From an uncultured Candidatus Saccharibacteria bacterium (lineage in GTDB: Bacteria; Patescibacteriota; Saccharimonadia; Saccharimonadales; 2-12-FULL-41-12), in contig CAZNIK010000001.1 of assembly GCA_964573095.1 (NCBI GenBank), positions 313,004-377,003 on the forward strand: 64,000 nucleotides of DNA, given 5' to 3'. Below, piece by piece: positions 2,433 through 32,309 of this stretch; the stretch's first letter is position 1, and each line of letters opens with the position of its first letter. Made by a program: the position numbers and the translations under genes. The notes beneath the pieces were generated by a model that saw nothing but the letters and a program-made list of their open reading frames with translations, ran no database searches and was not told where the DNA came from.

Positions 2433-2453
2433 TGCCTTTCGTTATACCACTTA

Positions 2454-3110: not shown

Positions 3111-3128
3111 CTTTCTTCCATTATATAG

Positions 3129-3152
3129 AAAAACCCCAAGAAAGGGGTTTTT
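3129..3152 (-). terminator. Hairpin AAAAACCCC-N6-GGGGTTTTT downstream of the KH-domain gene
   Basis: Perfect 9-bp stem with T-runs on both strands, seen directly in the sequence. Confidence 0.5.
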
Positions 3153-3243
3153 CTATCACATAAAGCTCCCATTCATCGCTTATGAATGTCTCGCTGAGCT
3201 TTTTTGTTTTTTTGTCCCTGCTTTTTTTCAGTGACTAGATAGA

Positions 3244-3678
3244 TTATACATCAAGATCGTCAAGATCTTCTAGCTCTTTTCTGGTCTTGGCGACAACGTC
3301 GCTCTGTTTTTCCTCGACGAGCTCATCAACAACTTCATCCTCATCTTTTTTCTTGCTGACACCAGACTCTTCGCTCTTCGACCAGGCCTCATCACCCCGA
3401 TCCTCTTGCTTTCGCTGCTCGGGTGCAACTCCGTTATCGACAATTTTTAAGTTGTAGCGAGCGTCATTTTTTGTTCCTAACGCTCTTAAAAGAGTCCGCA
3501 CACTTTGGGCGGTCGCACCGCGTTTGCCAATTACCCTACCCAAATCTTCTGGGTCAACTGTCAACTCTAACAAAACACCCTTCTCGTCAATTGTTCTTGC
3601 GATTTTAACCTCGTCCGGTTTGGTTACGAGAGATTTTATAACAAACTCGACAAATTGCTCGTCAATACTCACAGGCAC
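3244..3678 (-). CDS. KH-domain RNA-binding protein (YlqC/KhpA-like) with a long acidic C-terminal tail
   Basis: The N-terminal ~75 aa match the UPF0109/KH pattern (VIGKRGATAQSVRTLL). The C-terminal ~65 aa are low-complexity and rich in E/D/K. Confidence 0.8.
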   Translation of the reverse strand: MPVSIDEQFVEFVIKSLVTKPDEVKIARTIDEKGVLLELTVDPEDLGRVIGKRGATAQSVRTLLRALGTKNDARYNLKIVDNGVAPEQRKQEDRGDEAWSKSEESGVSKKKDEDEVVDELVEEKQSDVVAKTRKELEDLDDLDV

Positions 3679-3771
3679 ACTCCTCGATTACTGTAATTTA
3701 GATTAGCACTACTATTATATCAAAACCCGAACCCATCCCTCCACATTTTCCGAAAGGTATGTAGATATCGA

Positions 3772-5940: not shown

Positions 5941-6111
5941 TTATTTTTCTACCCGAACGTCTTTAAACGGCGCTCTGTTAGATTTTACGTTTATGAACTT
6001 GCCGGTTTTGGTATCTCTCTCTACATAGCGCTTATTTTTCGGATTGAACGTTTGTGATCGGCCACGAATGCGCCCCACTCTGCCGTGTCCTTTTGGTCCA
6101 TTCTTTGCCAT
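5941..6111 (-). CDS. Small basic protein (56 aa), hypothetical
   Basis: Not in the ORF track because it is under 60 aa. ATG preceded by GGAGGAGGGAG. Translation: MAKNGPKGHGRVGRIRGRSQTFNPKNKRYVERDTKTGKFINVKSNRAPFKDVRVEK. Confidence 0.5.
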   Translation of the reverse strand: MAKNGPKGHGRVGRIRGRSQTFNPKNKRYVERDTKTGKFINVKSNRAPFKDVRVEK

Positions 6112-6194
6112 AACTCCCTCCTCCTTTAGAATTTATGAATTGCGTATTATTTGATTCACATACATCAGTAGCTGCTTCCATCACTATTTTATCA

Positions 6195-6219
6195 ATTTCT
6201 CAAGATTATTTTGAGAAAT
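6195..6219. promoter_or_regulatory. Perfect inverted repeat ATTTCTCAA-N7-TTGAGAAAT, 30 nt upstream of the nuclease start
   Basis: Read directly from the sequence. Its function (operator or hairpin) is unknown. Confidence 0.3.
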
Positions 6220-6248
6220 CTTATATTTTTTCGTGATAGGCTTTATTC

Positions 6249-7199
6249 ATGGAATCAAAGTCTTGGCACAACCCCGTCTTCAAAAAACTTGCAGCTTCTG
6301 AGCTGGGTGGAAGCGGTGGGCATACTTCTGGGATTGTGCCGATAAATAGTACCCGAAGCTATTTTGGAACACCCAAAAAGCCAGCGACGCACAAAATACA
6401 CCAAATTGTAATTGAGTTTTGGCACGACGATGCCAGTAAAACGATTACAACAAATGTGAACTATCATGTCGCACCGACACACCGCCGCCAATATCATGTT
6501 ACGGGTAATATTTTTCCTGCCTACAAGAAAGCTGGGGCCAAAGTTGGGGACATTGTGGTTTTCTGGAAATCACGGAATAACGAAAATGACTTTAAAGCAG
6601 AGCTTATTGCCAAGAATTCCGCACGTTGGATCGAAGCAGAAAAAAACGGCAGCAGCTTGTCTTCTAAAGGGGGCACACTCCGACTAAGCCCTCCTGGGTT
6701 GATAAATTCAATGGACTTTGCGGTTCTCGATGATACGAGTGATTATGCAATTGTCTCTGATATCGAAGACACGTTTACTGACAATAGCTTTCCGACGGTC
6801 CCGCGCGAAGGAAGAAAAAAGCAAGGTGAGAGATATGTGACCTATCGCAGTAAGCGAAAAGGAGATTACGCACTAAAAAAACAGGCTTACGTGTGTCAAA
6901 TTGAATCGAGCCACAAAACCTTCACAACCCCAGCCGGCGTTCCCTATATGGAAAAACACCACCTTATCTCAATGAAGTTTTACGAGGAGTACACCAACGA
7001 TCTGGATGATATCCATAATATCGTTAGCCTGTGTCCGACCTGCCACAGAAAAATTCACTACGGGAAAAAGTCGGAAGTTTCTGACATGCTTGAATTATTA
7101 TTCAAAAAACAAAGTCCAATGCTCGAACGTGCAGGCTTCTTCATCAGTTTGACGGAGCTCAAGAAAAAATACGGAGTAGGCTTACGTCCCCTTTTGTAG
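6249..7199 (+). CDS. Putative restriction endonuclease: EcoRII-N/B3-like DNA-binding domain plus C-terminal HNH nuclease
   Basis: The N-terminal FKKLAASELGGSGGHTSGIVPI resembles the EcoRII N-domain motif (K-L-S-A-N-D-T-G-x-x-G-G-H-Q-x-G-x-x-I-P, from memory). The C-terminus has HHLIS...N-x8-LCPTCHRKIH (HNH). It is convergent with, and overlaps, an m5C methyltransferase gene. Confidence 0.7.
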   Translation: MESKSWHNPVFKKLAASELGGSGGHTSGIVPINSTRSYFGTPKKPATHKIHQIVIEFWHDDASKTITTNVNYHVAPTHRRQYHVTGNIFPAYKKAGAKVGDIVVFWKSRNNENDFKAELIAKNSARWIEAEKNGSSLSSKGGTLRLSPPGLINSMDFAVLDDTSDYAIVSDIEDTFTDNSFPTVPREGRKKQGERYVTYRSKRKGDYALKKQAYVCQIESSHKTFTTPAGVPYMEKHHLISMKFYEEYTNDLDDIHNIVSLCPTCHRKIHYGKKSEVSDMLELLFKKQSPMLERAGFFISLTELKKKYGVGLRPLL

Positions 7200-8237
7200 G
7201 CGAGGGCTGTTGGTAAATAGAGTTTCGAGCACGCTTTTTGCAACGTTAAGCGTTATTGCGTTGCCGGCCTGTCGATAAAGCTGTGTGTCAGAAACGCCGA
7301 CTTTCTGAGCCTTCTCAGCAAAAGAATCATCAAATCCCTGCAAACGAAATGCTTCTTTTGGTGTTAATTTTCTGATTCTATCGTGACCATTTTGGGCGGG
7401 TAGTACCTTTTGCCCATCAAACGCGCCTTGAATAAAGTTGTCAGAATAATAGTTATCTTGATTGGCTCTGTGCATCTTATGCATCGTTGCCGTAAGTGGT
7501 CTGGCGTGAATTCTGTTAATTTCTGATTTCGAATAATAGCCACCGCTGCCGTGTTCCAAAATGGTTTTTATCATTTTTTTTGAAAGGTAATATTTTTCAT
7601 CCACTTCGCGCTCCAAAAGATGCCACACAGTTTTGTACTGAGTTTTGCTGATTGGCTGATCAAATTGAGCATTAGAAATATAACGGAAATCTTTTTTTCT
7701 TTTGACGCCAATAAAGTAGAGTCTCCGTCTGTGTTGTGGCACCCCAAAATCAATACTATTAAGAAGCTCGGTTCTCAAGTTATAGCCAAGTTCCTCAGTT
7801 AATATTTTTACTATTCTCTGGTAGGTTTTGCCTTGGTCGTGCGTTTTTATTCCCCTCACATTCTCCAAGATGAAAAAGTCTGGTTTTTTTACCGACAGAA
7901 TCTTTGCTATTTGGAAAAATAATGTGCCTCGGGCGTCTTCAAAACCGGCCTTGTCTCCCATTAAGCTAAAAGGCTGGCAAGGGAAGCCTGCAAAAAGTAC
8001 ATCAAATTGTGGAATACTTTTTATGTCCGCCAAGGAAAGTTTAGAAATATCACCGATTGGCACCTCGTTTTTATGAAGTCGAAAGTTCGCATGATAGGTT
8101 TTCAGTGCGTGGGCATCTATCTCACTAAAGCCAACGCATTCTGTCGCAAACCCAATATGTTTTGCTGTTTGCTCAATCGCGGCGCGGAACCCGCCAACAC
8201 CTGCAAACAAATCTACATACCGAATTGGCTTTGTCAT
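7182..8237 (-). CDS. DNA (cytosine-5)-methyltransferase (M2)
   Basis: Motifs I DLFAGVGG, IV GFPCQPFS, VI ENV, VIII QHRRRLYFIG and X GNAITLNV. I prefer the ATG at 8237 (MTKPIRY); the track start at 8285 overlaps the upstream gene. Confidence 0.9.
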   Translation of the reverse strand: MTKPIRYVDLFAGVGGFRAAIEQTAKHIGFATECVGFSEIDAHALKTYHANFRLHKNEVPIGDISKLSLADIKSIPQFDVLFAGFPCQPFSLMGDKAGFEDARGTLFFQIAKILSVKKPDFFILENVRGIKTHDQGKTYQRIVKILTEELGYNLRTELLNSIDFGVPQHRRRLYFIGVKRKKDFRYISNAQFDQPISKTQYKTVWHLLEREVDEKYYLSKKMIKTILEHGSGGYYSKSEINRIHARPLTATMHKMHRANQDNYYSDNFIQGAFDGQKVLPAQNGHDRIRKLTPKEAFRLQGFDDSFAEKAQKVGVSDTQLYRQAGNAITLNVAKSVLETLFTNSPRLQKGT

Positions 8238-8244
8238 GGCTCTA

Positions 8245-9402
8245 CTATACCAACCTTTCCATAAGCTTTTTTGCAATAAGCTCACTTAACAGAGGTGGTA
8301 CTGCGTTACCGATTTGGTTGTACCACTGAGAGTATGGCCCCTCAAAAATATAGTCGTCTGGGAAGCTTTGAACTCGAGCCGCCTCTCTGGGCGTAAGGCC
8401 ACGCGCTTCGTAAGGATGAATGTACATGTTACAGTCAAATTTCATGTGGGAAGTGATTGTTTTGCACACTTTATTGGGATCAAGTTTAAAATATTTGTCT
8501 TTGAATATATGCGAACGACTTTTATAAGGCATTATGTGAGCAATGCTTTGGTGGTCAGATTTTCCACCTGGCGGTAAAAGTTTATAGATTTCCAGATCAC
8601 GAGGGTTGTTATATCGCGCCTTATGATTATAGGCGTACAGAGGGGGGGTGCCATGATTGATCCTCGCAATGTAGTTATTTGGCGGTGAGCGTGAAAAGAT
8701 TTTGTCCTTAAAAAACCCACTGTGGGCTGCTTCAATACTTGTATTGCCCTTTTCTCGCCTTGCCGATAGCCTTCTTAGTCCCCACAGTGCGTCTTTGAGG
8801 GGGACTACAGTGGCTGTCTTGGCGCGCTCAATGTCTACGAAAAGCTGACGCAATTGTTGACGAGGATTTGGTAGTTCATCCTTCTTGATGCCAATGTATA
8901 TAAGCCGTTCACGATTTTGCGGTATGCCATAATCTTTGGCGTTTAAAACAACATAATCTGCCATATACCCAATCGCATTAAATGCATCCACCACCACCGG
9001 TGCCACCGACAGCATTCCCTTGACGTTTTCCATAAGAATAATCTTAGGCTTTGTTATTTCAATCGCGTTGATGAATTTTTTAAATAACACATTTCGCGGA
9101 TCATTCAATAAGCGCTGACGGTTGGCCATGCTAAAGCCTTGACACGGTGGCCCACCAACTACAACTGAGATATTGGTTTTCCGCAGTATATCTGTATGTT
9201 TGTCGATAAAATCATCAATATCACTATGGATAATTTTTTCTGCGTTTGCCAAGGGGTGGTTTTTTCGATAGGTAAGGACCGAGGAGAGATCGTTGTCATT
9301 TGCCAAAAAAATCTCAAAACCAGCACGACTAAACCCAAGAGACAGCCCACCGGGACCACAAAATAAATCTACAACAAGAGGTTGTTTTGTTTTTTTCGTC
9401 AT
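8245..9402 (-). CDS. DNA (cytosine-5)-methyltransferase (M1)
   Basis: Motifs I DLFCGPGG, IV GGPPCQGFS, VI ENV, VIII QNRERLIYIG and X GNAVPPLL. Confidence 0.9.
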   Translation of the reverse strand: MTKKTKQPLVVDLFCGPGGLSLGFSRAGFEIFLANDNDLSSVLTYRKNHPLANAEKIIHSDIDDFIDKHTDILRKTNISVVVGGPPCQGFSMANRQRLLNDPRNVLFKKFINAIEITKPKIILMENVKGMLSVAPVVVDAFNAIGYMADYVVLNAKDYGIPQNRERLIYIGIKKDELPNPRQQLRQLFVDIERAKTATVVPLKDALWGLRRLSARREKGNTSIEAAHSGFFKDKIFSRSPPNNYIARINHGTPPLYAYNHKARYNNPRDLEIYKLLPPGGKSDHQSIAHIMPYKSRSHIFKDKYFKLDPNKVCKTITSHMKFDCNMYIHPYEARGLTPREAARVQSFPDDYIFEGPYSQWYNQIGNAVPPLLSELIAKKLMERLV

Positions 9403-9478: not shown

Positions 9479-10414
9479 CTACTCGTCTGGTGTGAGCCTA
9501 GTCGCACCGACGCCGCGAGACACTATGCCATCGCGAAGACCAAGCAACAACAGCTGCTCGTACGAGATATTGCCCAGCTTTTGCAGTATCCCAGTCGCAC
9601 GCAACTGTGCAATCGAATTGTGACGCTGCTTGGGTCCGTTTGAAGAATCCTGCACACACCTGTGCATCATATGTATTTCTTTTGGCGTAAGCACCGTAAG
9701 ATCCCTGGTGTCCAGCGGACGCATATCGATTAGTTTTTCTTCAAAAGCCGCCATGATCAGCTCGTCTTTTGCGAGATTGTTTTTTCTTTGGGCATTAGAA
9801 AATAGCCGAAACTGATCAGTTGGATGTATTCCTACGCGCTTGGATATCTCGGCGTTAGTGAGCGCCAGCGAGCCTAAGAATTTGGCTTCTTGAGGTGTAA
9901 GTATTAGGGAGCTTTCTTCGCGGTTATAGGGACTCGGCCTTTCAGAAGCCTTTGGTTTTGGCAACTGCATTTCGTCCCCAACTTCAACCAAATCCCGCTC
10001 AAAATTGATAATTGCGATTAAATCATCGCCCGTAAAATAACCCCTCGTAATCAAGGAAGGTTTTGTCGGTTCATTGGAAGTTGTCCTTGAGCCAAATACA
10101 CGCTGCCCCGCAATAGAGTGTTTTGCATACAGTTCATCTATCTCTTGCTTTGGTGAGACATTTCTCTTTGCCACGGCGTACGTTATTTCGTCGCGGTCTT
10201 TAAAACCGAATGACCAGCTATTGCCCATCAACTCCGAAAACACACCAAGATCACGCCGGGTAATTTCAATATTTCTATGCGGTTCAAGAATCGACTCTAC
10301 CTCGGAAAAAAACTCGGAAAGCGACGTACGTTTTGGGTCCATAGCACCTTTGAGGGCATATCGAAGCGGCGTTTCGTAAGCTTGCAGCCATTGCTCTTGT
10401 TGCAGTTCACTCAT
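9479..10414 (-). CDS. Hypothetical protein with two LuxR/GerE-like HTH segments
   Basis: LTPQEAKFLGSLALTNAEISKRVGIHPTDQFRLFSNAQRK and LTPKEIHMMHRC...SIAQLRATGILQKLG resemble LuxR-type HTH modules. The N-terminal ~170 aa are unrecognised. Confidence 0.4.
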   Translation of the reverse strand: MSELQQEQWLQAYETPLRYALKGAMDPKRTSLSEFFSEVESILEPHRNIEITRRDLGVFSELMGNSWSFGFKDRDEITYAVAKRNVSPKQEIDELYAKHSIAGQRVFGSRTTSNEPTKPSLITRGYFTGDDLIAIINFERDLVEVGDEMQLPKPKASERPSPYNREESSLILTPQEAKFLGSLALTNAEISKRVGIHPTDQFRLFSNAQRKNNLAKDELIMAAFEEKLIDMRPLDTRDLTVLTPKEIHMMHRCVQDSSNGPKQRHNSIAQLRATGILQKLGNISYEQLLLLGLRDGIVSRGVGATRLTPDE

Positions 10415-14059: not shown

Positions 14060-16513
14060 CTAGACCACAAAATTGACTAGCTTTTTCGGGATGTACACAG
14101 TTTTGCGCACGTCTTTTACTAGATAAGGTTGAACTTTGGTATCTGCTTTGGCAGCCGCAACAATTGTGTCTTGGTCTGCATCAGCTGGCATTAATATATT
14201 CGCCCTTACCCTGCCGTTGACTTGGACAACAATGGTTATTTCTTCGAGCGTCAAGTATTTTTCATCATGCACAGGCCAACTGTTCACATGGACAGATCCC
14301 TCGTTGCCCATGTCGTGCCACAACTCTTCGGCAATGTGTGGCGCAAACGGGGCAACACAAGCCACCAGGTTTGAGAGTGACTCTTGCCACACTTTGTGCT
14401 TTACAAATCCATTCTCGGCTTTTTCAAGGTACAACTTGTTTACCGCCTGCATTGCGGCGGCAATTGCCGTATTGTAGTGATTTCTCTCAATGTCTTCACT
14501 CATTTTTTTAATTGTGGAGTGGGTGATGTTTTGCAGTTTTTTTTGCAGCTCTTGGGTAACGCTACCTTCGTTCGCTGCTTGATACTCTTGAACTAACGCC
14601 CATAATCTTGCCAAAAAACGATAGCAACCTGGTACACCTTGTGGGTCCCAACGAGCACCAAGTTCTAGGGGCGCCGCAAACATCAGATAAGTCCTCAGTG
14701 CGTCTGCTCCGTATCCGCTATCAATAATTTCGAGGGGATCAACCCCGTTACCCTTCGATTTTGAAAAAGCACTGCCGTCACTCGCAGTGACTTTTCCATT
14801 AAACAACATGTGCTTAAACGGTTCTGGATTATCAACGATTCCAATTTTGGTAAAGAAACGAGTAATAAATCGAGCATAGAGCAAATGAGCAGTGGCGTGA
14901 TCCCCCCCATTATAGAAGTCAACTGGCATCCATTTGTTCACGACGTGAGAATCGAATATTTTTTCCTCGTTTGACGGATCAAAGTATCGAAACATGTACC
15001 AACTGCTACAAATATACGTGTCGAGCGTGTCCGTTTCGCGCTCGGCGGGACTCCCGCACTGAGGGCAGGCAACTTTGAGCCAATCCGTGGCACGTGCTAA
15101 CGCACTTCGGCCATCACCGCTGGGCTGATAGTCTTTCAAGATTGGCAGCTCAACAGGTAAATCTTCGTCTGGAACTAATACCAAACCACATGCCTGGCAA
15201 TTGATAATCGGTATTGGTGCTCCCCAGTAACGCTGACGACTGACGCTCCAATCACGCATTTTGTAGTTGGTTTTCTCGGCGGCTTGACCTTTTTGAACCA
15301 ACTCGTCGGTAATTTTTTCTCGAGCTTCTTCAGAAGCCATACCATTGTACGACCCAGAGTTGATCATCGTGCCTTCTTCGTGAGTACACTCATCATCACT
15401 CGCGTCATTTTGAACCACTCTGATAATGGGCAGCTCATACTTCTTGGCAAATTCGTGATCTCGTTCGTCGTGAGCCGGAACAGCCATGATTGCTCCGGTG
15501 CCATACCCCATCAACACATAGTCAGCTATCCATACCGGTAACTTCTCATTGTTTACTGGATTGATGGCATATGCCCCTATAAAGACACCTGTTTTGTCTT
15601 TCTCTGCTTGACGTTCAATTTCTGTCTTTTTTTGCGCCTGTTTAACATATTCGGCAGTGAGTTGCTTGTGTTCCGCAGATGCAATCAGATTCACAAGTGG
15701 GTGTTCTGGAGCTAGAACCATAAAAGTTGCGCCGAATAGTGTATCTGGTCGCGTCGTAAAAACAGTGACTGTCTCGTCCATTCCCTCAAGCCGAAACACA
15801 ACCTCAGCGCCCTTACTCTTGCCTATCCAGCTCTTTTGCGCAAGCTTAACGCTGGCGGTCCAATCCAGCTCATCAATCGCGTCGAGTAGCTCGTCGGCAT
15901 ATTCGGTTATCTTGAAAAACCATTGTTTCACTTCCTTTTTTTCTACCTGCGGATCTCCAGGCCCATCGTGCCTCCAGCACTTGCCGTCGATCACTTGCTC
16001 GTTCGCGAGTACCGTCTGACACTTCTCGCACCACCACTGCATTCGTGCATCTTGATACGCTAAGCCGTTTTGATACATCTGACTAAAAATCCACTGTGTC
16101 CACTTGTAATAGATCGGTTCATGAGTAGCGATTTCTTTTGACCAATCATTACTCCAGCCCATCGCTTTGTACTGCTTGTGGTAGCTAGGAATGATATTCG
16201 CCATGCTTTCTTGGGGCGAAACACCAGCCTTAATGGCGTAATTTTCTGCAGGAAGACCAAATGCATCCCAACCAACAGGGTGATAACTTTCGTACCCTTG
16301 TTGGCGCTTGTAGCGTGCCTTTACGTCGCTGATCGTGTAGTTCATCGCGTGTCCAATATGAATACCGGCACCGCTTGGGTAATTAAACATACTCATAGCG
16401 ATATACTTCGGTTTAGAGCTTGCTAAATCGGCAATATAGACGTTAGTCTCGTCCCAGATTTTTTGCCACTTTGGCTCGATTTCTTTCGGATTATACCTCT
16501 TCATTAGGTGCAT
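14060..16513 (-). CDS. leuS: Leucyl-tRNA synthetase
   Basis: 817 aa with HIGH (HIGHAMNY) and KMSKS-like (FSKSKGN) motifs and the LeuRS CP1/zinc region. Confidence 0.97.
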   Translation of the reverse strand: MHLMKRYNPKEIEPKWQKIWDETNVYIADLASSKPKYIAMSMFNYPSGAGIHIGHAMNYTISDVKARYKRQQGYESYHPVGWDAFGLPAENYAIKAGVSPQESMANIIPSYHKQYKAMGWSNDWSKEIATHEPIYYKWTQWIFSQMYQNGLAYQDARMQWWCEKCQTVLANEQVIDGKCWRHDGPGDPQVEKKEVKQWFFKITEYADELLDAIDELDWTASVKLAQKSWIGKSKGAEVVFRLEGMDETVTVFTTRPDTLFGATFMVLAPEHPLVNLIASAEHKQLTAEYVKQAQKKTEIERQAEKDKTGVFIGAYAINPVNNEKLPVWIADYVLMGYGTGAIMAVPAHDERDHEFAKKYELPIIRVVQNDASDDECTHEEGTMINSGSYNGMASEEAREKITDELVQKGQAAEKTNYKMRDWSVSRQRYWGAPIPIINCQACGLVLVPDEDLPVELPILKDYQPSGDGRSALARATDWLKVACPQCGSPAERETDTLDTYICSSWYMFRYFDPSNEEKIFDSHVVNKWMPVDFYNGGDHATAHLLYARFITRFFTKIGIVDNPEPFKHMLFNGKVTASDGSAFSKSKGNGVDPLEIIDSGYGADALRTYLMFAAPLELGARWDPQGVPGCYRFLARLWALVQEYQAANEGSVTQELQKKLQNITHSTIKKMSEDIERNHYNTAIAAAMQAVNKLYLEKAENGFVKHKVWQESLSNLVACVAPFAPHIAEELWHDMGNEGSVHVNSWPVHDEKYLTLEEITIVVQVNGRVRANILMPADADQDTIVAAAKADTKVQPYLVKDVRKTVYIPKKLVNFVV

Positions 16514-26467: not shown

Positions 26468-26752
26468 CTATTTACTTCTCACGTTTGATAGCTCGTATAG
26501 GCCCAGCAGCTCCGCAACCGCCTGTTCTTGGGCTTTTTCTGAACTGGAACTAAGTTTTTCCTTGATATGTGTACGAACATGGTTCTCGAGTATTAGTTTG
26601 TTGAGCGAGCCGATAGATTTTTGAATAGCCAGGCTCTGCGTCAGTATATCCATACAGTAATCTTCGTTCTCAATCATTTTCTGGATGCCACGCATCTGAC
26701 CCTCGAGTATCTTAGAACGATGCAAGGCGCGTTTTTTTAGATCAGAAATCAT
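26468..26752 (-). CDS. csoR: CsoR/RcnR-family metal-sensing repressor
   Basis: 94 aa with the LxRIEGQxRGIxxMI-like helix (ILEGQMRGIQKMIENEDYCMDIL) and the conserved Cys/His positions. Confidence 0.85.
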   Translation of the reverse strand: MISDLKKRALHRSKILEGQMRGIQKMIENEDYCMDILTQSLAIQKSIGSLNKLILENHVRTHIKEKLSSSSEKAQEQAVAELLGLYELSNVRSK

Positions 26753-26762
26753 ATTAAAATAA

Positions 26763-26781
26763 TAATACCCCCTGGGGGTAT
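26763..26781. promoter_or_regulatory. CsoR-type operator AATACCCCC-T-GGGGGTATT
   Basis: Perfect 9+9 inverted repeat 11 nt upstream of the csoR start. It matches the GC-tract palindrome style of known CsoR boxes. Confidence 0.7.
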
Positions 26782-26784
26782 TGT

Positions 26785-26812
26785 CAATATAAAAATATTA
26801 CCTCATTTTGCA
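26785..26812 (-). promoter_or_regulatory. Candidate csoR promoter (TTGCAA-16 nt-TATATT)
   Basis: Hexamers read on the minus strand. The operator begins 4 nt after the -10 element. Confidence 0.4.
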
Positions 26813-26830
26813 AAAGTTACCTCAGTTTTC

Positions 26831-26951
26831 TATTGGTGCGATACGTGGATGAAAAGTTACACATTATTAGAGAAGAAATTGAATATTGGCGTAACGTTCT
26901 AGCTATTCCATATCAAGAGTTTAAGCAAGATGCCACTAAATTACGGAGATA
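26831..26951 (+). repeat. Junction repeat copy D (most diverged; right arm only)
   Basis: ATTGGTGCGATACGTGG versus AATGGTGCCAGATAGCGG. Downstream patches (ACACATT, GAGTTTAA) align with copies A and C. The match is weak. Confidence 0.3.
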
Positions 26952-27051
26952 AGGGACTTACACTTTCTAATGCGTCAATCTTATTTTAGAGATATGTTGA
27001 TAAAAGATGTTACTTTATAGGTGGTAATTAGTTATTTATACCGAGAGAGTT

Positions 27052-29103
27052 ATGAAGATAAACTGGATAGAAATCGATAATGTAAAAAGCTTTAAGTCTA
27101 AAGTTAAAGTACAACTAAATTCTGATCACAATTTTGTTGTGGGCACAAACGGTAGTGGCAAGACTACCTTGCTGCAAGTGTTGAGCAGCTGTCTGCTTGT
27201 CTTGGTACCGCTTAGACGCACAAAGTCAGAATCTCGTGGTAACGAAAAGTGGCTTACATTTGAGACGCCTCCACACAATGTAATATTACCTAGAAACTTT
27301 GAGCGACAAGGAGATAATCAAACTATACGACTTGAAATATCGTTTGAGTCATCAAAAGACGGACTCATAAGTGAGCTTGAAAAATATCAAGCAGCATTTA
27401 GTGATAACAAAGAGTATCTGCGTAGCAAATTTTTAGATTTAGAGGGACTTTTATCAGAATTCGACAGTTATCTTGCTGCTTTAAAGGGATATAGCAGCTA
27501 TGTGTATACTTTTGATTTTTATGTTGACAGCAATTCTGGAATCGTCAGTCTTACTGGTGAGTCGCGCCAAAACAATAAAGGTATTCTAGATATTTTGGAT
27601 AACCTTGAGATCTTCCGACAAATTTATGATCATTTATTTAAGGCCGGAAAGGCGACAGAGGTCGTTACTCGAGGTTTCCAAATAATTTATTTGAATGCTG
27701 ATAGACTTATTGGTTTTCCAGCAGAGGTGCCTCAAGTTAGAGGAAATTTAGATGAATACTTTATAAACTCGTCATATGGGCAAAGAGCTAATCTTACAGG
27801 CAATATTTATTCCAATAGTAGCTTTAATTATATAGACCAAACGCTAACATCCATCGCAGAGGAACACTTCCATAGGAAATGGGACTTGCAGGATGCTGAA
27901 CCACTTGAAAATATAAAACAGTATACGGACTTGAAAGCTCGAATAAAGGATATTTTAGGCCTTGATTTTGGACTTGAAATATCACCACTAATTAACGAGC
28001 CTATCAAGCCTTATTTCCTTTGTGATGGTAACAAGATTTATTTTGATCAATTTAGTAGTGGCGAAAAGAGCTTAATCTACCTTTTGTTTACTCTTGCCAA
28101 TTCAGATATACAAAACTCATTTATCCTCATTGACGAAGCCGAAATACACCTGCACGGTAATATGCAGGACAAGTTATTATCAATTTTATATGAATTTAAA
28201 GAACTGAATAATCAACATTTTATAACCACGCACTCCCCGAAATTGATAAATAAACTAACCATATCCTCTGTCTTGCGATTCTATAAAACTGAAGGATCTA
28301 CTCAACATATAAACTTTAGGAATGACACGAATCAGCGTACAGATTACGATATTATTCGACTAATAAATAGCCAAAACAACGAAAAAATATTTTTTGCGGA
28401 TAAGGTCGTACTTGTCGAGGGCATTAAGGATCGAATTCTAATCGAAGCGATCATAAATCAGGTTAATGATACGAAAGAAATCATAGAAGTAATTGATGTA
28501 GGTGGCAAATTAAACTTGAGCTTTTATAGAGACTACCTTGAAGAGATCAAGGTATCTAACTACACACTTTCCGACTTCGATTACCTATACGATATCTGTA
28601 AAAAAGAGCTTGGCTCACTATTTGTCACAAGTAACAGTAAAATTGATGCCATTATTAAGCACAAAAAATCAGAGGACAGAAAAACACTGATAGATGCTAT
28701 GGAAGGCTTTGTATCGAGCAATGATAAAACCACTTTAAATAAAGTCACTGACTACCTTAAAACCAGGGGAATAGTCTTGAAAGATAATCTTAAGAAAGAA
28801 GAAAAAGTGTTATTAACAAACACCATTGATAAATTGAGAAGTAACAATATCTATATAATCTCCGCAGGGTTACTGTCAGATAAATCTAAATATTCTGGAG
28901 AGATTGAAGACTATTTACAGTATATTCAAACAAGCAAAAATCGAGACGATTCTATATCCAATCTCGTCAAATACATATCGAAAGATAACTTTGTAAACGC
29001 AATGGTAAAAAAATTAGAAACTAACGTTGCCGAGGAATTACTTGGGTTTATTGCTGCGGTTGTCTACAACGATGTAAGTAGAGGCTCGGACCTTATTAGG
29101 TAG
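27052..29103 (+). CDS. OLD-family ATP-dependent endonuclease (ABC-type ATPase plus Toprim)
   Basis: Walker A GTNGSGKTT, signature/Walker B FSSGEKSLIYLL...FILIDEAEIHLH, and C-terminal Toprim motifs VVLVEGIKD and DFD. Strongly AT-rich. Confidence 0.8.
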   Translation: MKINWIEIDNVKSFKSKVKVQLNSDHNFVVGTNGSGKTTLLQVLSSCLLVLVPLRRTKSESRGNEKWLTFETPPHNVILPRNFERQGDNQTIRLEISFESSKDGLISELEKYQAAFSDNKEYLRSKFLDLEGLLSEFDSYLAALKGYSSYVYTFDFYVDSNSGIVSLTGESRQNNKGILDILDNLEIFRQIYDHLFKAGKATEVVTRGFQIIYLNADRLIGFPAEVPQVRGNLDEYFINSSYGQRANLTGNIYSNSSFNYIDQTLTSIAEEHFHRKWDLQDAEPLENIKQYTDLKARIKDILGLDFGLEISPLINEPIKPYFLCDGNKIYFDQFSSGEKSLIYLLFTLANSDIQNSFILIDEAEIHLHGNMQDKLLSILYEFKELNNQHFITTHSPKLINKLTISSVLRFYKTEGSTQHINFRNDTNQRTDYDIIRLINSQNNEKIFFADKVVLVEGIKDRILIEAIINQVNDTKEIIEVIDVGGKLNLSFYRDYLEEIKVSNYTLSDFDYLYDICKKELGSLFVTSNSKIDAIIKHKKSEDRKTLIDAMEGFVSSNDKTTLNKVTDYLKTRGIVLKDNLKKEEKVLLTNTIDKLRSNNIYIISAGLLSDKSKYSGEIEDYLQYIQTSKNRDDSISNLVKYISKDNFVNAMVKKLETNVAEELLGFIAAVVYNDVSRGSDLIR

Positions 29104-29287
29104 CTGTAAAGGACAGTTCCGCCTTAGAAGAGAACTTTCTTTTCTCTATAAAGGCTTGGCCAGCATTCTGTCTAATTCTAAACTTAGTGCCGTGATTATG
29201 TCCTGTACGTGCATCAAAATCTACTAATGCGGTGTAAAAACATAGTTTTTCCGGCTGGTTTTTACATAGACGCACATAACAAAGTTT

Positions 29288-29476
29288 ACACGCCCGAAAT
29301 TAGTGTCTTTTACAGATTGGCTGCAAAGAAAAAGGACGCCGAAGCGTCCGAAATTTCCCAAATGGTGCCAGATAGCGGACTTATTGCTAACTATAAATCA
29401 CAGTAACGTTGACAGCTACAAGCTAAGGGGACTAGTTCAGCAGTTCAACCTTGCTGGCGATTTGATAGCACCTTGA
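29288..29476 (+). repeat. Junction repeat copy C (left arm + core + right arm)
   Basis: Contains the exact 20-mer AATGGTGCCAGATAGCGGAC (29361-29380). The left arm is homologous to copies A and B, with a 24-nt hairpin insertion. Confidence 0.7.
29303..29476 (+). CDS. Small conserved ORF (57 aa from GTG), paralogue C
   Basis: ...WCQIADLLLTINHSNVDSYKLRGLVQQFNLAGDLIAP. It aligns without gaps to the ORF at 30817-30960, with many synonymous differences. The start codon is uncertain and there is no clear SD. Confidence 0.35.
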   Translation: MSFTDWLQRKRTPKRPKFPKWCQIADLLLTINHSNVDSYKLRGLVQQFNLAGDLIAP

Positions 29477-29553
29477 TATAGATTCAAGTAGAATAGATGT
29501 ATAGGTGAGCTGGGAAGTCTGGTCGGCGCTTATTTTTTAATGCAAGGACTTCT

Positions 29554-30765
29554 GTGAAAGAAAAAGTAAAAAACCTAGCTCTCAAACTCCACCCGAAACG
29601 TGTAGCGACTTTATTTGATACATTTCTGAAAGATGAATCTATCGGCGGGAAGTTGATTCTTGTTGCTGCGTTGCTCTCTTTGATTGTCGTAAACTCGCCA
29701 CTTGCTGATGAGTTCAATACCTTTTGGCATACCCAGCTTTCAATCGGTATGGGTAGTTGGAGTTTGTCTCTTGATTTAAGACATTGGGTCAATGAGGGTC
29801 TTATGGCTTTCTTTTTCTTGGTAGTAGGTTTGGAAATTAAACGTGAACTTGTTAAAGGGGAGCTAAGAGATGTGAAGACTGCAGTCCTGCCGATAGGTGC
29901 TGCCGTCGGCGGAATGTTAATCCCCGCATTCATATATTTACTCTTTAACTTTAATACGGAAGCCGTCCAAGGCTGGGGCATACCTATTGCAACCGACATA
30001 GCGTTTGCCGTAGCAGTACTTTCGTTACTAAGCAACCGAGTGCCTGTACCTTTAAAGATATTCTTACTTACTCTTGCCATTGCTGATGACATAGGTGCTA
30101 TTTTTGTCATCGCCTTATTCTATGCAGAAATCATAAATTATTGGTATCTTGCTGCTTCGTTCCTGCTAGCTATTGGTATTTTCTTATTTAGGAAACAACT
30201 AACTTACCGCATTTTTATAGTGAGCTTACTTGGCGTTCTTCTATGGGTTACTACACATCTTTCAGGAATACACGCCAGCATTGTAGGTGCGGTTATGGGC
30301 TTCTTAGCACCAGTCGCAAGGTCTAATGACAAAGTGGGTGTTTCAGAAAAAGTTGAAAAACTGTTCCTGCCAATAACCACATTCTTTGTTTTACCAGTTT
30401 TTGCCTTCGCTAATGCGGGTTTCCCGATTAGTGCGAATGCATTAACGTCCAACCAATCCGTGTTATGGGGAGTTATCTTTGGGTTAGTAGCTGGCAAAGT
30501 TATTGGCATAACTCTGGCTTCTTGGTTGCTCGTCAAACTTAAGGTAGCGAAGTTGCCAAACGGCGTATTGTGGAAACATATTATAGGAATTGGCTTTATT
30601 GCAGGTATCGGCTTTACCGTTTCAATTTTTATAACTGAACTAGCTTTTTCAGATAGCCAATCGTTAATAAACACTGCGAAGATAGGTATATTTATTGCTT
30701 CGGCAGTTAGCGCATTGCTTGGCTACGCAATTTTGCGACTCACACGTTCTCGCCAAATTAATTAA
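29554..30765 (+). CDS. nhaA: Na+/H+ antiporter NhaA
   Basis: 403 aa, about 11-12 TM segments, NhaA signature GIPIATDIAFAVAVL. GTG start. Confidence 0.9.
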   Translation: MKEKVKNLALKLHPKRVATLFDTFLKDESIGGKLILVAALLSLIVVNSPLADEFNTFWHTQLSIGMGSWSLSLDLRHWVNEGLMAFFFLVVGLEIKRELVKGELRDVKTAVLPIGAAVGGMLIPAFIYLLFNFNTEAVQGWGIPIATDIAFAVAVLSLLSNRVPVPLKIFLLTLAIADDIGAIFVIALFYAEIINYWYLAASFLLAIGIFLFRKQLTYRIFIVSLLGVLLWVTTHLSGIHASIVGAVMGFLAPVARSNDKVGVSEKVEKLFLPITTFFVLPVFAFANAGFPISANALTSNQSVLWGVIFGLVAGKVIGITLASWLLVKLKVAKLPNGVLWKHIIGIGFIAGIGFTVSIFITELAFSDSQSLINTAKIGIFIASAVSALLGYAILRLTRSRQIN

Positions 30766-30775
30766 CATTATGTTT

Positions 30776-30960
30776 GAGTCCTTTTTGAGTTGAACGATAA
30801 AACACCGATTTTCTCGGTGCTTAACAGATACAGTAGCTTGCAATTTCAATGGTGCCAGATAGCGGACACATTTCTAACACTTAATCCCAGCAATATAGAC
30901 AATTACGAGCTCAAACATCTCGTAAATGAGTTTAATCTTTCTGGCAGTTTTATATTATAA
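30776..30960 (+). repeat. Junction repeat copy A (left arm + core + right arm)
   Basis: Exact 20-mer at 30848-30867. The left arm is roughly two-thirds identical to 31533-31611 by hand alignment. Confidence 0.7.
30817..30960 (+). CDS. Small conserved ORF (47 aa from GTG), paralogue A
   Basis: ...WCQIADTFLTLNPSNIDNYELKHLVNEFNLSGSFIL. Same frame and length as paralogue C from the W codon onward. The stop codon directly abuts the CIRCE element. Confidence 0.35.
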   Translation: MLNRYSSLQFQWCQIADTFLTLNPSNIDNYELKHLVNEFNLSGSFIL

Positions 30961-30987
30961 TTAGCACTCTTGACACGAGAGTGCTAA
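30961..30987. promoter_or_regulatory. CIRCE element (HrcA operator) TTAGCACTC-N9-GAGTGCTAA
   Basis: Exact match to the CIRCE consensus half-sites with a 9-nt spacer, 75 nt upstream of hsp20. Confidence 0.85.
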
Positions 30988-30998
30988 TTTTCTAAAAT
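30970..30998 (+). promoter_or_regulatory. Sigma-70-type promoter TTGACA-17 nt-TAAAAT for hsp20
   Basis: The -35 hexamer lies inside the CIRCE spacer and the -10 element follows the right half-site. Confidence 0.6.
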
Positions 30999-31061
30999 CA
31001 AGATAGAAGCTAGTTATGCTTCTCTAAGTAAGTTACTAATAATAACGAAAGGAGAAATATA

Positions 31062-31493
31062 ATGAGTAATCTTACTAGATGGGACCCTTTCGCAGAGCTG
31101 AGCGCTTTGCAAAAGCAATTTTTTGGTGATGACTGGATGACACCATTCAAGGGCGTAAACATACCTACTACGGACGTCTATACAAAAGATAACCAGCTTA
31201 AGGTTGAAGCTCACTTGCCAAACTTTGAACAAGACGATGTAAACATTCAGGTAGAGAACAACGCACTTGTTATAAGTGCCGAACGACACGAAAAAGAAGA
31301 GGATAAGGATAAGAAGTACGTGGTTCGTGAAAGCTCTAGTAGCTTTTACCGACGCATTGCACTACCAGATAGGGCTGATACAGATAAAATTGAAGCCAAA
31401 CTGGATGATGGCGTTCTTAAGGTAAGCGTACCATTAACACCATTACCAGAACCCAAGAAAATTGCTATCGCTGCTTCAAATAAAAAGAAGTAG
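31062..31493 (+). CDS. Hsp20/alpha-crystallin small heat-shock protein
   Basis: 143 aa with an ACD pattern (...VDVYTKDNQLKVEAHLPNF..., GVLKVSVP). Strong SD AAAGGAGA. Confidence 0.92.
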   Translation: MSNLTRWDPFAELSALQKQFFGDDWMTPFKGVNIPTTDVYTKDNQLKVEAHLPNFEQDDVNIQVENNALVISAERHEKEEDKDKKYVVRESSSSFYRRIALPDRADTDKIEAKLDDGVLKVSVPLTPLPEPKKIAIAASNKKK

Positions 31494-31515
31494 TCTAGTT
31501 CGGCCTTGCAGAAAA

Positions 31516-31546
31516 AAAGAGACTCTTTATTTGAGTCTCTTTTGAG
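31516..31546 (+). terminator. Rho-independent terminator after hsp20
   Basis: AAAGAGACTC-N7-GAGTCTCTTT followed by a T-rich run. Confidence 0.7.
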
Positions 31547-31611
31547 TTTGACGGAAAAGCACTAATTTCATTGGCGTTTAACAGATGAGCAATATCAGAA
31601 ATCAATGGTGC
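31533..31611 (+). repeat. Junction repeat copy B (left arm only, fused to the tRNA-Gly 3' end)
   Basis: Homologous to 30776-30856. Homology ends at CAATGGTGC, and TGGTGC is the complement of the tRNA-Gly GCACCA terminus. Confidence 0.65.
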
Positions 31612-31682
31612 GGGTGCGGGGACTCTAACCCCGGGCCTCATCCTTGGCAAGGATGCGCTCTAAACAACTGAGCTACACCCGC
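31606..31682 (-). tRNA. tRNA-Gly (GCC), CCA encoded, atypical D-loop and T-loop
   Basis: Hand-folded. Acceptor GCGGGTG/CACCCGC; anticodon loop TTGCCAA. The D-loop is AGTTGTTTA (no GG) and the T-loop is TTAGAGT (A at position 56). Confidence 0.85.
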
Positions 31683-31783: not shown

Positions 31784-31799
31784 CAATATTACGGAATAT

Positions 31800-31822
31800 T
31801 GGTGGTGATGAGGGACTCGACC
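31800..31822 (-). pseudogene. 3' fragment resembling the tRNA-Val T-arm, acceptor and CCA
   Basis: TGGTGGTGATGAGGGACTCGACC versus the tRNA-Val 3' end TGGTGGGTGATGAGGGACTCGAACC (two 1-nt gaps). No 5' half lies adjacent. Confidence 0.5.
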
Positions 31823-31931
31823 TTAACCCGTAAAAATTGCTTTTTGCTTGGTTCACTCGGCTTCCGTGGTCGCCGAGCAAGGGCGGCTGAGTGCCACCGG
31901 CACTCGCGTTCGATTCCAAACAAATAACTCT

Positions 31932-31970
31932 AATGAAAATTATATGACAGAAGTCATAAAAATTTTCATT
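31932..31970. terminator. Long AT-rich hairpin immediately 3' of tRNA-Val
   Basis: AATGAAAATT-T-TATGAC-TTCT-GTCATA-T-AATTTTCATT (minus strand), about 16 bp of pairing. Confidence 0.4.
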
Positions 31971-32046
31971 GGTGGGTGATGAGGGACTCGAACCCCCGAC
32001 CCCCTCGGTGTAAACGAGATGCTCTAGCCAACTGAGCTAATCACCC
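31970..32046 (-). tRNA. tRNA-Val (TAC), CCA encoded
   Basis: Hand-folded canonical cloverleaf; anticodon loop TTTACAC. Confidence 0.9.
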
Positions 32047-32186
32047 ATGATCCTTATTGTAAATTATTCGTATGGTTCGAATCTAGGACTTGACTCACCT
32101 TCGGCGAGCCCGAAACTTCGCGATTGGCAAGCCAGTCGCCATCGGAAGATTTCCTTGCAAACAACCACCGGCTGTTCTCACCCCGT

Positions 32187-32233
32187 CCCCTCGGTGCAAG
32201 CGAGAGGCCAGCACCAACCAAAGCGAATCACCC
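32187..32233 (-). pseudogene. tRNA-like 5' fragment (acceptor 5' strand to anticodon arm, loop CTTGCAC)
   Basis: The minus strand reads GGGTGATTCGCTTTGGTTGGTGCTGGCCTCTCGCTTGCACCGAGGGG, which parallels tRNA-Val positions 1-43. No T-arm or 3' acceptor follows. Confidence 0.4.
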
Positions 32234-32309
32234 AAGAACAAGAAACAACAGACGTTATAGTAGCAAATACCCCTGTTTTTTTCAAACTAATTGCCGTTAG
32301 TTGAAGCTG

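Follow-up and report, generated by a model that had tools for sequence, protein, structure and literature searches.

The locus raises the question of how three single genes came to lie in a row, each beside a similar junction, against the 3′ end of a tRNA gene. The window, which is the whole stretch of DNA that was analysed, spans 64,000 nucleotides of an uncultured Candidatus Saccharibacteria bacterium. Rather than ordinary intergenic DNA, the locus is an integration hotspot that varies among strains, and site-specific integration at the tRNA is supported. We consider it probable that the region from 26,833 to 31,611 is a hotspot at the 3′ end of tRNA-Gly(GCC) that was built by a Saccharimonadia family of large serine recombinases (LSRs). 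Two properties counted in favour of this reading are inverted gene orientation and low GC content (32–42% within the region vs. 45–52% in the flanks), the latter bearing out an earlier note, which had judged the region AT-rich from the sequence. Each of the three intervals holds one plus-strand gene, as that note had also stated and a Pfam scan agrees. From left to right, the features are:

26733–26832, no strand: csoR-side flank, left of the leftmost core; defined by strain comparison
26833–26839, plus: leftmost core, TTGGTGC; strain breakpoint
26833–26952, plus: type-2 small ORF of 39 aa (MVRYVDEKLHIIREEIEYWRNVLAIPYQEF...), which begins on the core; homologues follow cores elsewhere
27052–29103, plus: cargo 1, OLD-like ATPase and TOPRIM nuclease (Pfam AAA_15, AAA_21, OLD-like_TOPRIM); GC about 34%
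29300–29361, plus: A-type left arm, with hairpin GGACGC-cgaa-GCGTCC at 29334–29349
29362–29368, plus: core A, ATGGTGC, within the exact 20-nt repeat
29363–29476, plus: orphan LSR C-terminal tail A (WCQIADLLLTINHSNVDSYKLRGLVQQFNLAGDLIAP, then stop); alignable with the C-terminus of the complete L021 LSR
29554–30765, plus: cargo 2, NhaA Na+/H+ antiporter (Pfam Na_H_antiport_1, E = 1.9e-132)
30776–30848, plus: B-type left arm B, with hairpin CACCGA-ttttc-TCGGTG at 30803–30819
30849–30855, plus: core B, ATGGTGC, within the exact 20-nt repeat
30850–30960, plus: orphan LSR C-terminal tail B (WCQIADTFLTLNPSNIDNYELKHLVNEFNLSGSFIL, then stop), with ATTTCTAAC at half-site positions 16–24
30961–30987, plus: CIRCE operator (TTAGCACTC-N9-GAGTGCTAA) upstream of Hsp20, as read from the sequence; also kept in L034
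31062–31493, plus: cargo 3, Hsp20 (Pfam HSP20, E = 5.9e-24)
31533–31604, plus: B-type left arm C, 75% identical to arm B
31605–31611, plus: core C, ATGGTGC; 31606–31611 is the GCACCA end of the tRNA
31606–31682, minus: tRNA-Gly(GCC), identified by ARAGORN and Rfam (70.5 bits); attB-type half-site that serves as the anchor

The nhaA gene is bracketed by an exact repeat, AATGGTGCCAGATAGCGGAC, at 29361–29380 and 30848–30867, and an 18-mer out of it has two matches vs. 0.05 expected. The right arms that follow (29361–29467 vs. 30848–30954) are 71% identical over 107 nt, with a local score of 43 vs. 15.2 ± 2.3 that none of 1000 dinucleotide shuffles reached. Both similarities had been proposed earlier and hold. 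The proposal of three homologous left arms survives for B and C, which are 75% identical over 57 nt (30773–30829 vs. 31530–31586; score for 100-nt arms 44 vs. 15.5 ± 2.3, 0/1000 shuffles). It fails for arm A (29262–29361), whose scores of 13 against B and 17 against C were reached by 819 and 228 of 1000 shuffles, respectively, and are not significant. Arm A is homologous to the arm preceding a core in L002 (+6634) and is a separate subtype common to the window and L002. Its hairpin, taken earlier as an extra insertion, probably corresponds to the hairpin of B and C. As had been noticed, arm C continues into CAATGGTGC, which is complementary to the GCACCA at the 3′ terminus of tRNA-Gly(gcc).

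The right arm had been regarded as a plain recombination arm. Instead, it is coding sequence, corresponding to the last ~35 codons (WCQIAD...FNLxGxL, then stop) of an LSR gene. Full-length LSRs on related contigs bear this tail, and the core TGGTGC lies inside their W-C codons. One of these, in L021, is a protein of 534 aa with Resolvase and Recombinase domains that ends in SKNDLWCTIVDVFQTSAIAAVNDYKLKHLVEQFQLADNLI. A search of 1.84 billion proteins with hmmsearch gave 62 matches, which, apart from one weak match, have the peptide at their C-terminus or close to it. Among 21 tail copies, many of them retrieved with a core-containing pattern so that the invariance of positions 1–13 is partly due to retrieval, pairwise differences per site at codon positions 1, 2 and 3 are 0.43, 0.32 and 0.60. 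Likewise, codon differences between tail A and the L010 tail are synonymous in 14 cases and non-synonymous in 6. Most orphan tails remain open reading frames; decay is seen at L018 −4969 (internal stop), in L034 (W changed to stop) and at L020 +682 (degenerate). The sole in-frame start for tail A is 20 codons upstream of the W, within non-conserved sequence, and several copies allow no in-frame start at all: at L012 +1584 and L016 +590 a stop is found two codons upstream.

The left arms, too, had been treated as plain arms; they are relic recombinase 3′ ends that, on the opposite strand, also provide the terminator for the tRNA. In the tail frame, arm A gives ...LQRKRTPKRPKFPK|WC, similar to the C-terminal region of LSRs, for example that of P0008 (...LNRKAPEGAKNAV|WC). 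On the minus strand its hairpin is followed by a T-run, as in a terminator. A tblastn alignment matches 30778–30954 to LSR residues 473–534 (E = 6e-6), of which left arm B itself accounts for residues 473–499. Arm C is a relic because a stop codon breaks the tail frame, and its first bases double as the 3′ half of a second hairpin, GAGACTC-tttattt-GAGTCTC (31519–31539). In tblastn of the window with an LSR query the tails are the sole matches, and the scanned window ORFs of at least 120 aa (all but 14060–16513 on the minus strand) contain neither a recombinase nor a transposase domain. With that scope the window has no recombinase, as the earlier note had it, and each of the three modules is a decayed element or else a non-autonomous cassette.

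Comparison with strains and relatives places the breakpoints at the core. The flank at 26733–26832 is 99% identical in L030/L031, where identity runs through TTGGTGC and divergence begins directly afterwards; L032/L033 are 99% identical to the window up to 26825 and different beyond. The fourth core-like site proposed earlier is thus a genuine strain breakpoint; the similarity claimed for its right arm (26840–26951) to arms A and B is not found (386–547 of 1000 shuffles). That arm, called type 2, does not give an LSR tail when read in the usual frame, which counts against an LSR-built hotspot. Homologues of its small ORF lie downstream of cores at L002 +7008, at L018 −2946 and in L030/L031, with decayed copies in L021, and a Pfam search of the ORF gave no match. 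At the other end, homology to L034 starts at 30852: the tail and Hsp20 module is 89% identical there, starts exactly at the core and has a different left neighbour and arm.

The same breakpoint is observed within recombinase genes. Proteins P0054 and P0064 agree at 66 residues as far as WC and diverge beyond it, and one LSR body (99–100% identical) has three different right-hand partners (in L021, L024 and L023), attached exactly at TGGTGC. In L016, an intact LSR (Resolvase, Recombinase, Zn_ribbon_recom) reads directly into the same tRNA-Gly(gcc), whose next neighbour is tRNA-Phe, and by doing so gains an unrelated tail. The far end of this ~7.5-kb element is a B-type arm, core and tail at L016 +590. 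The L016 LSR and the core breakpoints support the integration at a tRNA 3′ end that had been proposed from the window; what that proposal missed is the coding role of the arms. Arrays of like junctions, with one to three genes per module, occur in L001, L010, L012, L018, L020 and L038.

The half-sites fit a serine integrase in part. The motif ATTTCWAAC occupies half-site positions 16–24 in 21/21 tails, and a near-variant is at the same position in right arms whose tail ORF is lost. In tRNA-Gly(GCC), GACTCTAAC is at positions 11–19, which agrees with the displacement of the ZD motif by 5 bp between the attP and attB sites of serine integrases (Rutherford et al. 2013, PMC3783163). The left half-sites do not consistently contain the 9-bp motif in inverted form (best matches at positions 5 to 23), so the dyad symmetry expected for serine-integrase sites was not found. 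From the palindrome ATGGTGCACCAT the centre would be G|C, a self-complementary crossover dinucleotide that normally abolishes polarity and so speaks against the LSR reading. Serine integrases normally recombine attP with attB only. Tandem insertion beside an occupied site thus needs explaining, and neither an empty site nor a circular form was observed; these points, like the absence of a recombinase from the window, also count against it.

A possible, although rather doubtful, alternative is an active cassette system, in which an LSR acting in trans excises, circularises and reinserts a tail, its cargo and a ~80-nt arm, as in an integron. Five B-type arms from four genomes (B, C, L002 +7008, L016 +590 and L001 +2177) share a sharp 5′ boundary, GAGTC, and compensatory hairpin changes beside five different cargo genes, and random decay does not predict such a boundary. 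Small modules of 0.35–2.5 kb recur in arrays on at least seven contigs, the re-housed Hsp20 module has its boundary at the core, the half-site motif outlasts the tail ORF and orphan tails are mostly open. Against this, no circular junction, empty site or single module transposed to two array positions was seen, the decayed tails and the stop in arm C do not suit mobile cassettes, and the internal junctions are not canonical attP × attB pairs. Accretion followed by deletion fits all of these observations as well.

Other origins for the junctions are far less probable. The 3′ ends of tRNA genes are classic targets of tyrosine integrases, and modules that lack an integrase and lie between short sites occur as Xer-dependent dif modules and integron cassettes; nevertheless, that a tyrosine recombinase, Xer or an integron made these junctions is very unlikely. 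The core is inside LSR genes, LSR bodies are the sequences joined to alternative partners, and the tRNA-Gly of L016 is abutted by an LSR and not by a tyrosine integrase. Moreover, intI, attI and attC-like architecture are absent, the window holds no E. coli-type dif-like site with three mismatches allowed, and its scanned ORFs no Phage_integrase domain. Ordinary paralogous small genes, duplicated with conserved terminators and no recombination, would account for the protein-level constraint on the right arm and the terminator-like hairpin at each junction. This is slightly more improbable still and is already contradicted by the copies without a start codon, by the C-terminal position of the peptide, which is the true end of full-length LSRs, and by near-identical strains that break exactly at the core. 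Least credible is a tRNA-like or 3′-UTR RNA element on the minus strand, where the junctions read ...GGCACCA, 10–45 nt, a hairpin and a T-run, and where GCCAG...CTGGC in copies A and B could pair as an acceptor stem. Comparative data contradict it: the GCCAG partner is shifted or missing in L010 and L002, the consensus fold is weak (−11.75 kcal/mol, two covarying pairs only), Rfam and ARAGORN give no match, and substitutions follow codon periodicity in the plus-strand frame, whereas the matching minus-strand frame has stops.

In the preferred reading, an LSR-built hotspot, the crossover core (putatively NTGGTG|C) lies inside the recombinase gene, at a conserved Trp-Cys ~35 codons before the stop. 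The P arm, left of the core, is the 3′ end of the recombinase gene and, on the opposite strand, gives the tRNA its trailer and an intrinsic terminator. The P′ arm, right of the core, codes for the last ~35 residues, its first 24 bp mimicking the tRNA-Gly half-site with the distal 9-bp motif 5 bp further out. Since the core is inside the gene, recombination would swap the C-terminal tail, leaving orphan tails and relic gene ends. As to the order of events, we infer that successive insertions beside the tRNA push older elements inward, and that each of the three remaining modules was reduced to a tail, a single cargo gene and a relic arm.

Several known systems share parts of this arrangement. 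Integron cassette arrays also consist mostly of single-gene, recombinase-less units with a structured, repeated site and a recombinase in trans; the present arrays lack an IntI tyrosine recombinase, attI, a Pc promoter and the attC bottom-strand hairpin architecture, carry cargo in variable orientation and are anchored on a tRNA. The pdif modules of Acinetobacter plasmids and IMEX elements are small, Xer-dependent modules of one to a few genes between short recombination sites, with no recombinase of their own, whereas the present junctions lack an 11-6-11 dif-like site and the associated enzyme is an LSR. Myxococcus phage Mx8 IntP and Sulfolobus SSV1 Int are tyrosine recombinases with attP inside their own gene, which integration alters or splits, as for the L016 LSR; the present enzyme belongs to the serine recombinases, and the tails deposited at the junctions are conserved and interchangeable. 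With the serine integrases A118/LI, phiC31 and Bxb1 (PMC3783163) there is agreement in the Resolvase, Recombinase and zinc-ribbon domains, in exchange at a short core and in the distal 9-bp motif (16–24 in element-type, 11–19 in host-type half-sites). They differ in that the present site is within the recombinase's own coding sequence, so that recombination alters the last ~35 residues, a tRNA 3′ end serves as target, left half-site dyad symmetry was not found, and the putative sites stand in arrays with recombinase-less modules.

The earlier view that the locus resembles no classical island went too far: tycheposons (bioRxiv 10.1101/2020.12.28.424599), a minority of which use LSRs, are a documented case of elements accreting in tandem at tRNA genes and leaving degenerate remnants that lack an integrase. 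In Prochlorococcus tycheposons (Hackl et al., 10.1101/2020.12.28.424599), as here, insertion recurs at one tRNA, older elements are pushed inward and degenerate, the cargo serves niche or defence, and islands differ among strains. Their junctions are partial tRNA copies and their integrases mostly tyrosine recombinases, in contrast to the present locus, where only 6–9 nt of the tRNA are repeated, a junction is a recombinase gene end plus tail, modules go down to one gene and the host is a CPR bacterium. By this comparison, the closest precedent is tandem accretion at tRNAs, carried out here with an unusual LSR, and the modules would be either dead remnants or units that a recombinase encoded elsewhere may still move.

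Three single-gene modules lie between short junctions that share the core TGGTGC, and the last junction ends at tRNA-Gly. The order across the window is as follows:

csoR flank
26833-26839, leftmost core, TTGGTGC, on which the type-2 ORF begins
plus strand, OLD gene
arm A
29362-29368, core A, followed by tail A
plus strand, NhaA gene
arm B
30849-30855, core B, followed by tail B
CIRCE, then Hsp20 gene on the plus strand
arm C
31605-31611, core C
31606-31682, minus strand, intact tRNA-Gly(gcc), 70.5 bits

Much of what the earlier note had read from this region by eye held up when it was aligned formally. Both copies of the 20-nt repeat (29361-29380 and 30848-30867) agree exactly, and the homology of right arms A and B, at 71% over ~107 nt, lay above all 1000 dinucleotide shuffles. 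The left arms had been described as three related copies, of which B and C are significantly similar, whereas A against B or C stays at the background of 1000 dinucleotide shuffles. The weak likeness that had been proposed between the right side of the fourth, leftmost site and right arms A or B was also at background level when compared with 1000 such shuffles. Left of the second repeat copy, ~57-75 nt share 75% identity with the DNA directly downstream of tRNA-Gly(gcc). As had been noted, TGGTGC at arm C is the complement of the GCACCA end of tRNA-Gly, and each of the three intervals holds one plus-strand gene, encoding an OLD-like ATPase/TOPRIM protein, NhaA or Hsp20, the last with CIRCE upstream. 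The impression that the intervals are AT-richer was correct (GC 32-42% in the region against 45-52% around it), and neighbouring genes outside the region are nearly all on the minus strand. No recombinase or transposase domain was present in the scanned window ORFs of at least 120 aa, which are all but 14060-16513(-). Neither the NhaA nor the OLD protein had an exact match on record.

Judged from its sequence, the small ORF in the right arm encodes the final ~35 residues of a large serine recombinase (LSR). With the TGG of the core as first codon, the window copies translate as WCQIADLLLTINHSNVDSYKLRGLVQQFNLAGDLIAP and WCQIADTFLTLNPSNIDNYELKHLVNEFNLSGSFIL, each ending at a stop. Pattern scans of genome and metagenome collections, together with protein look-ups, found tail-bearing units in Saccharimonadales-like contigs. 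Across 21 copies, pairwise differences per site in tail codons 9-33 are 0.43, 0.32 and 0.60 at codon positions 1, 2 and 3, and window tail A differs from the copy in contig L010 by 14 synonymous and 6 non-synonymous codons. The tail frame is not that of a normal small gene, since several copies have no start that it could use; in L012 and L016 a stop in the same frame precedes it by two codons. When 1.84 billion proteins were searched with a profile, the tail peptide had 62 matches, and apart from one weak match it always sits at the C-terminus of the called protein or close to it. The N-terminal extensions of the matches are mostly unrelated, a few having '...VLSNIELKDKKLSY...' in common, and following these led to contig L021. 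Here, a 534-aa protein with Resolvase and Recombinase domains carries the tail peptide as its C-terminus (...SKNDLWCTIVDVFQTSAIAAVNDYKLKHLVEQFQLADNLI, then a stop), which identifies the window ORF as an LSR tail. The core ATGGTGC lies inside the W-C codons of this gene and forms the palindrome ATGGTGCACCAT there. In addition, window arm B in the tail frame, FELNDKTPIFSVLNRYSSLQFQ followed by WC, aligns with the part of the recombinase that immediately precedes W-C (window 30778-30954 against LSR residues 473-534, E=6e-6, tblastn), and arm A resembles other LSR ends (LQRKRTPKRPKFPK before WC, against LNRKAPEGAKNAV before WC in P0008, a protein from the profile search).

Three other accounts of the right arm were rejected. 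A stand-alone gene with an NTG start and a +1 frameshift conflicts with the NTG-frame stop at codon 6 in L001 +4397 and with the peptide being an LSR C-terminus. A replacement 3' end for a chromosomal target gene found no long non-recombinase protein with the tail as its C-terminus, and a minus-strand tRNA-like RNA (GCCAG...CTGGCACCA) had a weak consensus fold, an unconserved pairing partner and no Rfam or ARAGORN match. An NTG stands before TGGTGC in 13/13 of the first-found tail copies, which are:

window, 29362 and 30849
related contigs L001, L002, L010-L012, L014, L016, L018 and L020

The base preceding TGGTGC is never C in these 13 copies, which places the NTG in the +1-offset frame (MVPDSG..., stop after 11-17 codons). 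This NTG is probably a property of the site.

Breakpoints between strains and relatives fall at the cores, the same left sides being joined to differing right sides exactly after TGGTGC. Proteins P0054 and P0064 have 66 identical residues up to W-C and then different tails, and their DNA is identical up to TGGTGC. After TGGTGC, one and the same LSR body (99-100% identical) continues into one tail in L021, into a second tail in L024 and, in L023, into a remnant resembling the tRNA-Gly acceptor. Over the csoR operon and up to TTGGTGC at 26833-26839, contigs L030 and L031 match the window at 99% identity, and beyond this point they have another allele of the adjacent small ORF and another gene in the OLD position. 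In L034, homology to the window begins at 30852 and covers tail B, CIRCE and Hsp20 at 89% identity, and the Hsp20 module sits behind a different left arm than in the window.

Contigs L032 and L033 part from the window 8 nt ahead of the core. To the right of the equivalent of window 26825 (L032 1-167, L033 1-135) the core is absent, CsoR being identical and the DNA 99% identical, and both continue with other, GC-rich DNA that the 64-kb window lacks, so that this boundary exists in a third configuration. Although the core is missing, neither contig is an empty tRNA-Gly site. Nor could an empty site show in contigs anchored on the kinase that lies right of the tRNAs, as these end inside tRNA-Val. 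In L021, at 1932-3536(-) and 5990-6309(+), and in L022-L027, there is a ~200-nt inverted duplicate of the LSR 3' end with the alternative tail WCDKLSNQLTSRAIELEQNVSFQELVDSLSLNGELLSV; in L027 the duplicate has the standard tail instead. The arrangement of the L021-type element suggests that tails may be switched by inversion at its palindromic core.

Half-site positions were numbered from the centre of the L021 palindrome, between TGGTG and C, and depend on this inferred centre, whose self-complementary GC would be the crossover. On this numbering, ATTTC[T/A]AAC occupies positions 16-24 in 21/21 tails, with 16-18 and 22-24 invariant, and tRNA-Gly has GACTCTAAC at positions 11-19, alike in the window and L016. 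In serine integrases, the zinc-ribbon-domain motif is at 16-24 in attP half-sites and 5 bp nearer the centre in attB (Rutherford et al., PMC3783163). Given the inferred G|C centre, the right half-sites show the same attP/attB offset. By this published rule, the right halves fit the P' site (tails) and the B' site (tRNA) of a single enzyme family. A near-variant, GTTTCGAAC, is at the same half-site place in right arms that have no tail (L010 +3704, L010 +6285, L038 +9149). These arms keep the half-site without the tail frame, which argues that the DNA motif is conserved independently of coding. At L010 3704 and 6285 and L038 9149 the first ~30 nt of the half-site are kept (NTGGTGC...ACTTTGTTTCGAACAC), and some of these arms have an internal hairpin, e.g. 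GTGCG-catga-CGCAC. The left half-sites have no consistent mirror motif: an inverted copy is perfect at 9-17 in L001 +2177, matches 7/9 at 9-17 in arm C and 8/9 at 21-29 in L012 +2884, and is absent or variable in the remaining left halves.

An intact element at tRNA-Gly is present in contig L016. Its LSR has Resolvase, Recombinase and zinc-ribbon domains, is 41% identical to the L021-type LSR body and reads straight into tRNA-Gly(gcc), then tRNA-Phe, as in the window. The other end of the element, ~7.5 kb off, consists of a B-type arm, core and tail. The cargo is:

2769-4115, minus strand, CBASS-like cyclase (SMODS + AGS_C)
5965-6492, plus strand, DnaD_N/HTH_36 protein

With the CBASS-like cyclase this cargo is of the anti-phage defence kind, as is the OLD nuclease of the window. 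On the minus strand each left arm carries a hairpin plus T-run a few bases past GCACCA, so that the recombinase 3' end is predicted to double as tRNA trailer and terminator.

The type-2 ORF of the leftmost site encodes 34-39 conserved residues (MVQ/R..E..H.IR.EI..WR..L..PYQE[YF]), its NTG GTG C start is the core itself, and a conserved GGGAGTTACAC comes after it. Copies are at:

window, 26833-26952
L002, 7008-7115
L018, 2946-2845, minus strand
L030, 800-699, minus strand

L002, L018 and L030/31 have conserved copies of the ORF and L021 has decayed ones, and tblastn of the compared loci turned up none that is fused to an LSR. The ORF may represent the tail, read in the other frame, of a further recombinase subfamily, or else a small gene of the element.

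The enzyme domains and half-site logic match those of serine integrases. Recombinase and site are linked in the L021 and L016 relatives, where the core is inside the LSR genes, whereas the window itself has no LSR. As in tRNA-anchored tandem islands, the array directly adjoins an intact tRNA gene at its 3' end, the GCACCA of which overlaps core C, an LSR element of relatives occupies the same tRNA (L016, tRNA-Gly/tRNA-Phe) and content varies by strain, L030-L033 and L034 differing from the window at cores. Such islands, however, separate their elements by partial tRNA 3' copies, and here only TGGTGC(+2-3 nt) is common to junction and tRNA, the next 12-24 nt being a spaced imitation and not a copy. 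Tycheposons grow by successive integrations and contain degenerate remnants, with LSRs in a minority (bioRxiv 10.1101/2020.12.28.424599), and their building of islands by tandem accretion at tRNA genes matches the array. The parts of an integron (intI, attI, Pc and attC with R''-L''/L'-R' imperfect palindromes) are lacking. No tyrosine recombinase is present in the scanned window ORFs or beside the arrays, and the junctions are made of coding sequence and a terminator hairpin, unlike attC. The module borders also lack the 28-bp XerC-spacer-XerD site of Xer/dif modules (IMEX, pdif), the window having no match to ATAA-N6-TTATGTTAAAT, the E. coli-type consensus, with up to 3 mismatches. Recombination sites inside the integrase gene are known from the tyrosine integrases of Mx8 and SSV1. 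Our literature searches found no report of such a site within the own gene of a serine recombinase, and no paper linking Saccharibacteria with serine recombinases or tRNA islands.

Beyond the array, a partial tRNA-Val 3' copy lies at window 31797-31825, between tRNA-Phe and tRNA-Val (31970-32046), with 17 nt exact (31804-31820 = 31975-31991). Contigs L028 and L029, from 92-99%-identical strains, end inside tRNA-Val at 31994 and 32004. The duplicate may be a second attachment scar or hotspot. Upstream of tRNA-Val, 32047-32300 is a GC-rich, apparently structured 250-nt spacer; on its minus strand there are a tRNA-like 5' end (GGGTGAT...) and, at 32187-32208, a hairpin that resembles an anticodon arm and has CTTGCAC as its loop. 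This spacer, for which there was no ARAGORN/Rfam match, may be an interrupted or degenerate tRNA. Two adjoining C-5 cytosine DNA methylase genes at 7182-9402, beside unannotated ORFs 6249-7199 and 9479-10414, are probably a restriction-modification cluster. A metagenome scan with a 25-mer of the window tRNA-Gly gave 0 matches, and viral-contig scans with the core, LSR, type-2 peptide and half-site pattern gave chance matches only.

We consider it likely that the window holds a junction array made by an LSR at tRNA-Gly. Repeated entry of LSR elements next to the tRNA fits the layout: each element would contribute a tail at one end and its recombinase gene at the other, and later loss would have spared only the last 60-85 nt of these genes. 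Arrays with 1-3 genes per module, often recombinase-less, also occur in L001, L010, L012, L018, L020 and L038. Within an LSR-made array, the modules could be cassettes mobilised in trans, and five B-type arms from four genomes point this way, having a common GAGTC 5' boundary, a hairpin kept by compensatory changes and five different cargo genes, as do the orphan tails, most of which are still open. Some tails, however, have stops (L018 -4969, L034), arm C is interrupted and no circle junction or empty site was seen, so that mobilisation in trans is a possibility we hold to be doubtful.

An integron-like cassette system run by an LSR in Saccharimonadia is likewise put forward only tentatively. 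Its minimal non-autonomous cassette would consist of a recombinase-tail segment, 1-3 cargo genes and an ~80-nt arm. The arm would double as tRNA terminator, and cassettes would be captured, stacked and shuffled at tRNA-Gly. Each exchange would re-tail the recombinase, which could be a built-in activity switch.

CPR bacteria, including Saccharibacteria, have tiny genomes and, to our knowledge, few mobile elements have been described in them. The locus is one concrete route for the gain and exchange of accessory genes in such genomes, with an OLD-type nuclease, an ion antiporter and a heat-shock protein as cargo and, in a relative, a CBASS-like cyclase. The locus also defines a recombinase family with predictable sites, namely its own 3' end and tRNA-Gly. 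As each recombination event would rewrite the LSR C-terminus, the protein could find use in genome engineering, as an enzyme that keeps a built-in record of its state. Should the recombinase-less modules be mobilised in trans, the system would be a serine-recombinase counterpart of the integron.
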